DNA from: Patescibacteria group bacterium
GTDB lineage: Bacteria; Patescibacteriota; Gracilibacteria; BD1-5; UBA2023
Reading direction: 5' to 3'
DNA: 21,049 bases
Assembly: GCA_030836665.1 (NCBI GenBank)
Contig: JAUPLX010000004.1
Span: 1-21,049 of the forward strand
Shown here: piece after piece, positions 7,765 to 8,712 of the stretch
How the letters are laid out: each line of letters starts with the position of its first letter
Position numbering within the stretch: position 1 is the first letter of the stretch
Program-made: the position numbers and the translations under genes
The notes under the pieces: generated by a model
The model's database searches: none
What the model was told of the DNA's origin: nothing
Seen by the model: the letters and a program-made list of their open reading frames with translations, nothing else

Positions 7765-8712
7765 ATGCGTATGGATTCGGGTATTTTTCGAAAATCGGTC
7801 ATCGCCGCCGTGGGCTTCTTCGGAACGCTCGGAGCGCTTTCGGTAGGGTATTCCGCCTATGTTTCGAGCCTTCCGGCAACGGCGAATTCCGGCGCGACGC
7901 TCTCTTCCGCCGAATGGAACAAGATGGTTGCCGCCCTCTCGACGCTCGACGATAATCTGTCGAATCTTACGTTTTCGGGCGGGGGCGTCGGAATCGGAAC
8001 GGCGAATCCCGCCACAAGAAAACTCGACGTGCGGATAACGACTACCGATTCCGTAAATTGATCCGTGGCGAATTCGTATCCGATAGCCTGATTCATAAAC
8101 GAGGGTTCCGATGGATCGAAGAGGGGACTCGAATTCGGCGCGCCTACCGGAAGCACGAGTGCTCCGGTGTATATCAAGGTGAGTGGAACTGGCAACCGAT
8201 TCTGATTCCTCAATCAATACAATACGGAAGCCTTTTCAATTCTTGATACTGGCAACGTCGGCATAGGAACGACCTCTCCGTCCGCGAAACTCCACGTCAA
8301 CGGACCGATGATCCGAACCATCGCCTACGCGACTGCGAACGGACCGAACGACGACACGGACGTGGGACAAATCGCGAGCAGGGTCCTGAATTTCACGAAA
8401 CTCAGCTCTTCGACGAAAATTCGTATCCAATATACCGATGCCCTTCGTGTCACAAGCACAAGCAATGCTTGTCGTTGGGAAATTAAGGTGGGCGGGGCTT
8501 CTTGTCCTGGTCAACCGTTGGTATACGACTACTACACGAGTGGCGACAATACCCATCGGAGTCGAACCGTCGTCGGATATTGCAACGGAATCAGCGCGGG
8601 TTCGAAACAGATTCAAGTCTGGGTGAGTAGCACTCCCGGGTATTCCGGAGCCGACTGCTATACCGGATGGAACGCCTCGACTTGGGTTTTGGAAGCCGAA
8701 GAGGTGAACTAA
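7765..8712 (+). CDS. secreted/anchored fibre-like surface protein with CTHRC1-like Cys-containing C-terminal domain (315 aa, three in-frame UGA(Gly))
   Basis: Track ORFs 7765-8061 and 8308-8712 are in the same frame. They are joined through TGAs at 8059-8061, 8089-8091 and 8203-8205 with no other stop. Domain order:
- N-terminal hydrophobic signal/anchor.
- Two G(G/N)VGIGTxxPxxKLxV motifs.
- A C-terminal domain with 4 Cys.

TAA stop. Confidence 0.75.

Follow-up and report, generated by a model that had tools for sequence, protein, structure and literature searches.

A mosaic accessory gene for a putative surface fibre with a CTHRC1_C tip in a code-25 Gracilibacterium

What kind of protein is encoded at a locus that standard-code gene calling breaks into pieces? 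We asked this of positions 7765 to 8712 of a 21,049-nucleotide stretch of DNA from a Patescibacteria group bacterium (NCBI GenBank assembly GCA_030836665.1, contig JAUPLX010000004.1, positions 1 to 21,049, forward strand), the whole of which is referred to as the window herein. An earlier reading made without database searches (the sequence-only reading) had joined the pieces into one protein with an N-terminal anchor, a fibre-like stalk and a C-terminal domain resembling that of animal CTHRC1, and had named it a candidate for host attachment. Our analysis leads us to favor, with moderate confidence, the view that the gene encodes an accessory surface fibre of a Gracilibacterium that uses genetic code 25. 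The fibre would probably be trimeric and, by analogy with known fibers, would carry a lectin-like head that binds other cells.

The plus-strand frame of 7765-8712 runs through 315 codons with no internal TAA or TAG and no frameshift, interrupted only by TGA, which occurs at 8059, 8089 and 8203 (codons 99, 109 and 147). Under the standard code the gene is split into 7765-8061, 8058-8246 and 8308-8712, just as the sequence-only reading had said, and its claim that recoding yields a single 315-amino acid (aa) protein was confirmed. In this genome TGA is read as glycine (code 25). This follows from the alignment of ribosomal proteins uS19, uL6 and uL3, in which an X placed at TGA falls on the Gly conserved in SLKKGP, MSRIG and LGLIGKK of the solved ribosomal proteins, from the gene at 887-1726(+), and from stop codon usage, since TAA or TAG ends all 17 genes checked and TGA ends none of them. 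The 887-1726 gene encodes a full-length DNA damage-inducible protein D, whose match to the DinD equivalog NF008573 (positions 1-276 of 279, E=4e-102) continues over both in-frame TGAs. Thus, the UGA recoding that had been proposed for this lineage is backed by independent genes, with glycine as the amino acid. The second TGA of the DinD gene (1619-1621) is an apparent stop in the standard code, at which the last 35 residues would be lost.

Two Logan assemblies, L040 (SRR24011158) and L041 (SRR24011159), contain the same fibre gene with all three TGAs and only one to two bases different from the window. Since these are independent assemblies from two different sequencing runs, the TGAs are not assembly errors. 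The second ATG, at 7771 (MDS...), is probably the true start, because P0001, a relative of 223 aa that is 83% identical to the window protein, begins at MDS. The parts of the gene referred to below are as follows.

7765..8712, plus strand: whole fibre gene under code 25, with 315 sense codons and a TAA stop.
7795..7863, plus strand: N-terminal hydrophobic helix (SVIAAVGFFGTLGALSVGYSAYV, aa 11-33) that follows R/K residues and contains the top Kyte-Doolittle 19-residue window (1.6).
7897..7968, plus strand: helical "neck", aa 45-68, TLSSAEWNKMVAALSTLDDNLSNL, a LSSAEWNKMVAAL helix.
7978..8031, plus strand: first fibre motif, aa 72-89, GGGVGIGTANPATRKLDV, read from the sequence.
8032..8250, plus strand: middle stalk unit, aa 90-162, holding all three TGA (Gly) codons (8059-8061, 8089-8091 and 8203-8205).
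8251..8298, plus strand: second fibre motif, aa 163-178, GNVGIGTTSPSAKLHV, at the junction of stalk and tip.
8299..8709, plus strand: CTHRC1_C tip, aa 179-315, with the Pfam match at aa 193-306 (8341-8682).
8710..8714, plus strand: TAATG overlap, in which the fibre stop overlaps the ATG (8712) of the next gene, read from the sequence.

When the protein was compared with Pfam-A at E<=1, the sole family found was PF25815 (CTHRC1, C-terminal domain), with E=2.6e-17 and a score of 63.8 bits against a gathering cutoff of 27, covering profile positions 13-133 of 137. Neither C1q (PF00386) nor a TNF family was matched at the same threshold, and no NCBIfam model was found for the protein. A single-pair BLASTP comparison with human CTHRC1 (NP_612464.1) agreed, giving 33% identity over 129 aa (E=1e-17). 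The human sequence used in the sequence-only reading turned out to be exactly NP_612464.1, and the aligned blocks are those it had listed, so that its assignment of the final domain stands. The domain of about 130 aa does contain the four Cys it described (236, 247, 273 and 298) and a TGWN motif at aa 300-303. Positions shared with the human domain include three of the four Cys, RW, TGWN and the terminal EE, while C298 lies opposite Ala.

Conservation across 68 homologues of the tip follows the same residues. C236 was retained in 66, C298 in 65, and C247 and C273 in 60 each; W238 and G301 were present in every sequence, T300 in 67 and W302 in 61, and E239 and E313 were likewise invariant or nearly so. 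The Cys residues tend to be lost in pairs, with C247 and C273 missing together in eight of eight cases and C236 and C298 in two of three. Such covariation suggests the disulfides C236-C298 and C247-C273. Two disulfides, together with an N-terminal hydrophobic helix that follows basic residues, would in turn point to an exported protein.

We then considered the predicted fold of the tip using an AlphaFold2 (AF2) model of the TGA-free C-terminal 168 aa, built as a monomer from the 68-sequence alignment; our view of the full-length protein was taken from the model of P0001. The tip model is all-beta, with a predicted local distance difference test score (pLDDT) of 87.2 and a predicted template modeling score (pTM) of 0.78. 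Foldseek comparison with the PDB returned trimeric TNF-like lectins as the best matches, namely Photorhabdus PLTL (9ib7, TMt 0.69-0.70) and the N-terminal domain of Burkholderia BC2L-C (2wq4), followed by the Chlamydia Pgp3 C-domain, Bacillus BxpB (8d02) and ExsFA (7r1m), EDA, 4-1BBL, C1QL1, C1q and the Bdellovibrio tip Bd2734. The matches to TNF-like lectins, C1QL1 and C1q had a probability of 1.0 and TMt up to 0.70. A library of viral predicted structures also gave many matches, mostly to unnamed phage proteins, among them collagen-like and C1q-domain proteins and a few tail-fibre or host-specificity proteins. The structure search that had been suggested as a check therefore returns a TNF/C1q-like fold, and the tip is modeled as a jelly roll of this type whose relation to C1q and TNF lies at the level of fold only. 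PLTL, BC2L-C and Pgp3 (C-terminal domain, 4jdn), the best solved matches (TMt 0.62-0.70, root-mean-square deviation 3.3-4.2 Å), are trimeric jelly rolls, and PLTL and BC2L-C are lectins that bind sugars at protomer interfaces. Sequence identity of these proteins to the window tip is only 8-13%, and the comparison was one of overall fold.

The part of the protein in front of the tip has the layout of an anchored fibre. Behind a basic N-terminus (aa 1-10), the hydrophobic helix at aa 11-33 that had been called a signal or anchor helix is present; the gracilibacterial homologues have this layout in common with the window protein, and the corresponding segment of P0001 is helical in the AF2 model at low pLDDT. 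We regard aa 11-33 as a putative membrane anchor or uncleaved signal anchor. About 38 residues separate this helix from the first motif, and they are helical in the P0001 model. The segment that had been noted after the anchor is found here as the LSSAEWNKMVAAL helix of aa 45-68, which has counterparts in other Gracilibacteria (LTSTLWNEIV or LTSTLWNDLV) and corresponds to a neck helix at 46-65 of the P0001 model (pLDDT about 74-78). This neck may form a trimeric coiled coil.

Of the two G(G/N)VGIGTxxPxxKLxV motifs that the sequence-only reading had described, both were found (GGVGIGTANPATRKLDV at aa 72-89 and GNVGIGTTSPSAKLHV at aa 163-178), but the first is one residue longer than the pattern allows. 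The second is kept together with the tip in nearly all homologues, with the consensus GNVGIGTxxPxAKLxVxGxLIRTIAYATGNGP. A profile of the homologues matched fibers of Bdellovibrio bacteriovorus in solved structures, Bd2133 (8ond) at E=6.6e-5 and 8oml at E=0.0079, and this supports the fibre-type stalk that had been proposed. The matching segment of Bd2133 is "AGNVGIGATAPTAKLEVAGTI", and the profile alignment sits on "...GNVGIGATAPTAKLEVAGTI", that is, GNVGIGxxAPxAKLxV.

Comparison with relatives indicates that the fibre gene is a mosaic. P0001 shares its anchor, neck, junction motif and tip with the window protein and is without aa ~75-165; the unit it is missing is exactly the one that holds all three TGAs of the window gene. 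This middle unit is similar to one repeat unit of P0054, a Peptidase_S74-terminated fibre (60% identity in a local alignment spanning 40% of the query). In a hand alignment, the residues of P0054 opposite the three TGA positions are G, D and S, and in P0027 and P0036 a G lies opposite TGA109. Since the TGA positions never fall opposite Trp, this again fits Gly. TGA accounts for three of the 37 Gly codons of the fibre gene versus three of 312 in 16 other genes (Fisher p=0.018), and this enrichment suggests that the middle unit was recombined in from a genome in which TGA is in commoner use. Composition gives no clear sign of recent transfer. The GC content at third codon positions (GC3) of the fibre gene, 0.60, is at the low end of the 0.63-0.81 of its neighbors and no outlier, and its amino acid composition is unusual, being rich in S, G, T and N.

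Tips appear to be exchanged on a common stalk. In L003 (JGI 3300027985, 29% GC), the neighboring genes 88-990 and 1014-2060 have a near-identical anchor, neck and first stalk motif, with a CTHRC1_C tip on the former and a Peptidase_S74 tip (E=4.6e-17) on the latter. P0061, the database entry for the former, wrongly has Trp at 26 Gly positions; read in code 25, its 26 TGAs become Gly and the same architecture results. A further protein, P0114, has the same stalk followed by a true C1q domain.

The gene is accessory at the strain or species level, because three close relatives keep its flanks without it. In the window it sits between the divergent RNase P RNA and a conserved small membrane-protein gene. 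In L036, L039 and L037, whose SecY is 91-95% identical, the flanking RNase P RNA, adenylate kinase and RNase T-like exonuclease align at 81-93% nucleotide identity, and tblastn for the fibre found no match in these loci. Only ~60 bp separate RNase P in L036 from the orthologue of the gene downstream of the fibre. That downstream gene, 8712-9125, encodes a 137-aa membrane protein and is kept in the fibre-less L036, so it is not a dedicated partner of the fibre; no Pfam family was found for it or for 9211-9609.

Several features of this region bear on how the gene may have arrived. Window positions 7695-7775, which comprise the fibre start (ATGGATTCG, MDS) and the AT-rich sequence leading up to it, are similar to ~11900-12030 of L037 and ~9400-9520 of L039, where the counterpart is the start of an unrelated small membrane-protein gene beside RNase P with an AAGGAG ribosome-binding site, a site that the window is without. 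This shared start region may be a recombination joint of the fibre insertion. Between the exonuclease and RNase P, L037 (GCA_964482035.1) encodes at 9618-10481(-) a 287-aa protein that weakly matches N_methyl (type IV pilin-like), as well as three small open reading frames (ORFs), so that this stretch is a possible hotspot for genes of surface proteins.

CTHRC1_C-bearing proteins form a real but small family. A word-indexed protein search returned 700 homologues, and an exhaustive phmmer search with the tip against 1.84 billion cluster representatives returned 674 at E<=1e-3, 392 at E<=1e-10 and 104 at E<=1e-30. The proteins of the phmmer set range from 110 to 2666 aa, and some have 3-17 tandem copies of the domain; those with tandem copies (P0256, P0257, P0260, P0266 and P0002, up to 2666 aa) have an architecture far from that of a single fibre tip. 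Among species-representative genomes the domain is patchy. It occurs in the giant sulfur bacteria Parabeggiatoa, Achromatium and Marithrix, in Desulfobacteraceae, Bacteroidota, Cyanobacteriota, Myxococcota, Ilumatobacter, Dehalococcoidia and Zixibacteria, and also in Gracilibacteria, Saccharibacteria (L023) and the DPANN archaeon Undinarchaeota (L020), the last two at 44-49% identity. Saccharibacteria and DPANN archaea are other lineages of small, host-dependent cells.

Besides P0001, the tips nearest to that of the window belong to giant sulfur bacteria (64-75% identity, with the alignment running from the junction motif on). The genomes of these bacteria encode many paralogues, whose stalks are of coiled-coil, Lpp-like or collagen type (PF11839, PF01391). 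A neighbor-joining tree of 34 tip domains grouped the window tip and P0001 with 100% bootstrap support, joined them with other Gracilibacteria at 28-41%, and placed them as sister to a clade of sulfur bacteria at 44%. Some transfer between Gracilibacteria and giant sulfur bacteria seems likely given this degree of tip identity across very distant phyla; the tree fixes neither its direction nor the number of transfers. When rooted on human CTHRC1, the tree placed the human domain on a long branch away from all prokaryotic tips. We conclude from the sequences that the relation between the window protein and metazoan CTHRC1 is homology of a shared domain and not orthology.

The likeness to the animal protein extends to the layout, since in both the domain comes after an export signal and a stalk expected to trimerise. 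Unlike metazoan CTHRC1, however, the window protein has no collagen Gly-X-Y sequence (no PF01391 in Pfam at E<=1 and no G-X-Y run); its stalk is a phage-like beta fibre, its N-terminus is a predicted membrane anchor, and C298 is without a human Cys partner. Cthrc1 C-terminal domains, some on bacterial collagen stalks, were reported in bacterial metagenomes by Leclere et al. (2020, Genome Biol Evol, PMC7058181), who found BclA and collagen VIII/X NC1 domains to be the best remote templates for CTHRC1 and modeled a C1q/NC1-like fold. The window tip is a clear member by sequence of the same bacterial family, its predicted beta-sandwich agrees with their CTHRC1 model, and many database proteins, among them P0015, P0027, P0036, P0039, P0050 and P0062, share its layout of stalk motif plus CTHRC1_C. 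In contrast to the window gene, the published bacterial domains are metagenome sequences only, some with collagen repeats and none set in a code-25 Gracilibacterium, and their function, context and mosaicism were not treated. The novelty implied by the sequence-only reading was too high, as the bacterial domain was published in 2020 (PMC7058181), has its own Pfam family, and TNF-like fibre tips were described in 2024 (PMC10769870). What is new here is the occurrence of CTHRC1_C in a high-GC code-25 genome, in an accessory and mosaic gene with a link to giant sulfur bacteria; the domain assignment was correct and not new. Our literature search found no mention of PF25815, no paper on a CTHRC1_C domain in Gracilibacteria, and none testing the domain in any bacterium.

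A functional reading is best drawn from fibers that have been studied. In Bdellovibrio, a bacterial predator, Caulton et al. (2024) described mosaic adhesive trimeric (MAT) fibers as intertwined trimers displayed on the surface, in which a loop motif of the VGxGxxxPxxxL type caps beta-helix edges (PMC10769870). The presenting end of these fibers is conserved and the tips are swappable, comprising S74-terminated, novel sandwich, TNF-like and C-type lectin forms, and one TNF-like tip binds GlcNAc (N-acetylglucosamine) and Proteus O-antigen (PMC10769870). Swappable TNF/C1q-like tips are also known from the tail fibers of extracellular contractile injection systems (PMC12923769). The window protein has the GNVGIGxxxPxAKLxV loop motif in common with the non-S74 class of MAT fibers (Bd2133 8ond, Bd2439 and Bd2734 8okw), as well as a constant presenting end, a variable C-terminal tip, a TNF/C1q-like tip fold (as in Bd2734) and S74-ended sisters in its own lineage. 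Like Bdellovibrio, its organism is expected to live at the expense of other bacteria.

On this analogy, the N-terminal transmembrane helix would hold the fibre in the cell membrane with the remainder outside. Three chains, through the helical neck and the one beta-stalk unit between the two GNVGIGTxxPxxKLxV loops, could form a short fibre that presents a disulfide-stabilised, TNF/C1q-like jelly-roll head (CTHRC1_C) at its far end. The head would bind a glycan or protein on the surface of a different cell, which would be host or prey to this reduced bacterium, and the modular stalk-tip junction would permit tips to be exchanged. The proposal for the head comes from analogy with MAT fibers, TNF-like bacterial lectins and phage receptor-binding tips, and trimerisation, surface exposure, ligand binding and a role in host attachment are all to be read as inferred from architecture and analogy. 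The frame, code, lineage, domain homology, modeled fold, mosaicism and accessory status of the gene are established by the comparisons above.

Several points weigh against a MAT-like adhesin. With 315 aa the protein is far shorter than MAT fibers of ~600-1100 aa, and it has a predicted transmembrane helix and helical neck in place of their ~130-aa N-terminal beta domain. No Shine-Dalgarno-like sequence was seen upstream of either fibre ATG, with AAGGAG present at the neighboring gene in relatives, and this makes expression of the fibre less certain. Many free-living bacteria (Cyanobacteriota, Bacteroidota, Myxococcota and Dehalococcoidia) have the CTHRC1_C domain, which is therefore not specific to host-dependent lifestyles. 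In addition, TNF/C1q-like heads can be purely structural, as in BxpB/ExsFA of the Bacillus exosporium. The tip of the window protein also comes from another sequence family than those of MAT fibers. Because the N-terminal domain is replaced, we describe the protein as MAT-like and not as a member of the family; it resembles a very short non-S74 MAT fibre and may work like one.

If the head were structural, the protein would belong to the envelope or matrix, forming a coat or nap on the cell's own surface or mediating self-aggregation, with BclA, BxpB and ExsFA as models. BxpB and ExsFA are indeed among the good Foldseek matches, BclA and the collagen VIII/X NC1 domains were the best remote CTHRC1 templates (PMC7058181), and the sulfur-bacterial paralogues on lipoprotein-like, coiled-coil and collagen stalks (PF11839, PF01391) look like envelope furniture. 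A core coat protein, however, is not expected to be missing in relatives with 91-95% identical SecY, and interchangeable tips on one stalk, as in L003, are typical of recognition proteins, so that we consider this explanation unlikely, though worth keeping in view. The accessory status of the gene and its insertion at a variable spot beside an RNA gene could also be explained by a remnant phage tail fibre or receptor-binding protein that came with a prophage or mobile element and is useless to the cell. The stalk motif and the S74-ended relatives are phage-like, and viral predicted structures match the fold. Yet no phage genes lie beside the fibre, its neighbors being RNase P RNA, adenylate kinase and the conserved small membrane protein; tblastn of the motif and tip against 50,697 phage genomes gave nothing at E<=1e-3; the N-terminal anchor is common to other gracilibacterial homologues; and the frame is intact in the host's own code. 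We judge such a remnant to be quite improbable.

The same intact frame argues against a broken gene, in which the three TGAs would be real stops and only fragments or nothing would be translated. That three TGAs fall within 49 codons of a gene whose neighbors use TGA so rarely, and that a standard-code caller splits the gene, would fit such a break. Against it stand the conserved Gly opposite TGA in uS19, uL6 and uL3, the DinD model that runs over two TGAs, the 17 genes of which none ends in TGA, the 315 codons without TAA, TAG or frameshift, the G, G/D and S opposite the TGA positions in homologues, and the low-GC homologue with 26 TGAs. We therefore give a broken gene very little credence. 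Going further than the adhesin reading, one could suppose that the fibre is a host-range determinant whose tip has been exchanged with giant sulfur bacteria (Parabeggiatoa, Achromatium and Marithrix) that are its hosts or prey, the gene behaving like a phage receptor-binding cassette with presence and absence between strains and with stalk and tip swaps by recombination. This is speculative, and we think it rather doubtful.

The rest of the window is in keeping with the lineage and the code. An entry named "Patescibacteria group bacterium" matches the window SecY exactly. Among named organisms, Candidatus Gracilibacteria (66-73% identity) and "gcode 4" ACD bins come closest after it, in line with the candidate phyla radiation (CPR) lineage that the sequence-only reading had supposed. 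A bacterial class A RNase P RNA at 7285-7653(-) confirms a cellular genome. The window has a GC content of 56% versus 29% and 25% in two other gracilibacterial contigs (L003 and L015), and the scarcity of TGA in its genes fits this high value. Long plus-strand ORFs without TGA might seem to speak against recoding, but they are antisense shadows, as judged from codon-position GC and from the ribosomal protein sequences. A classical ribosomal-protein operon (L3 ... L15, followed by SecY) occupies 20.8 kb to 10.7 kb of the minus strand, and the longest standard-code plus-strand ORFs in 10625-20819 (for example 10799-13243, 814 aa; 18399-19265; 17724-18386) are shadows of it. Their GC content at first codon positions is ~0.75 and their translations have much E, D, V and G, whereas real genes have GC3 of ~0.65-0.8 and second-position GC of ~0.4. 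A naive ORF reading would wrongly annotate half of the window.

Other genes in the window also differ between relatives or suggest mobility. At 4948-5697(-) and 5745-6494(-) there are tandem endonuclease/exonuclease/phosphatase-family paralogues, both beginning MKIISLNCWG; in L036 and L039 a single copy precedes a radical SAM gene. A RhuM/Fic-domain protein at 2622-3752(+) (PF13310, E=8e-23; PF02661, E=2e-12) adjoins tRNA-Thr(GGT) at 3803-3878(-); this gene beside a tRNA could be toxin-like or belong to a mobile element.

For the CTHRC1 field these findings add little beyond confirming the domain as a widespread, mobile prokaryotic fibre tip, a spread that fits the earlier view that the animal fusion of collagen and this domain arose independently. 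For annotation, the fibre gene illustrates cleanly how proteins of code-25 genomes with unusually high GC (56%) are missed when genes are called in the standard code. Gracilibacteria, whose hosts are almost all unknown, are not known to have any demonstrated adhesin or protein of host recognition. The fibre gene provides a concrete, small and expressible adhesin candidate, with a predicted anchor, a short stalk and a confidently modeled lectin-like head, and it varies between close strains as part of a fibre set with swappable tips. Its tip is highly similar to tips of giant sulfur bacteria, which gives a testable lead to the cell partners of this organism. Were the host-range proposal true, hosts of uncultured code-25 CPR bacteria could be predicted from sequence.

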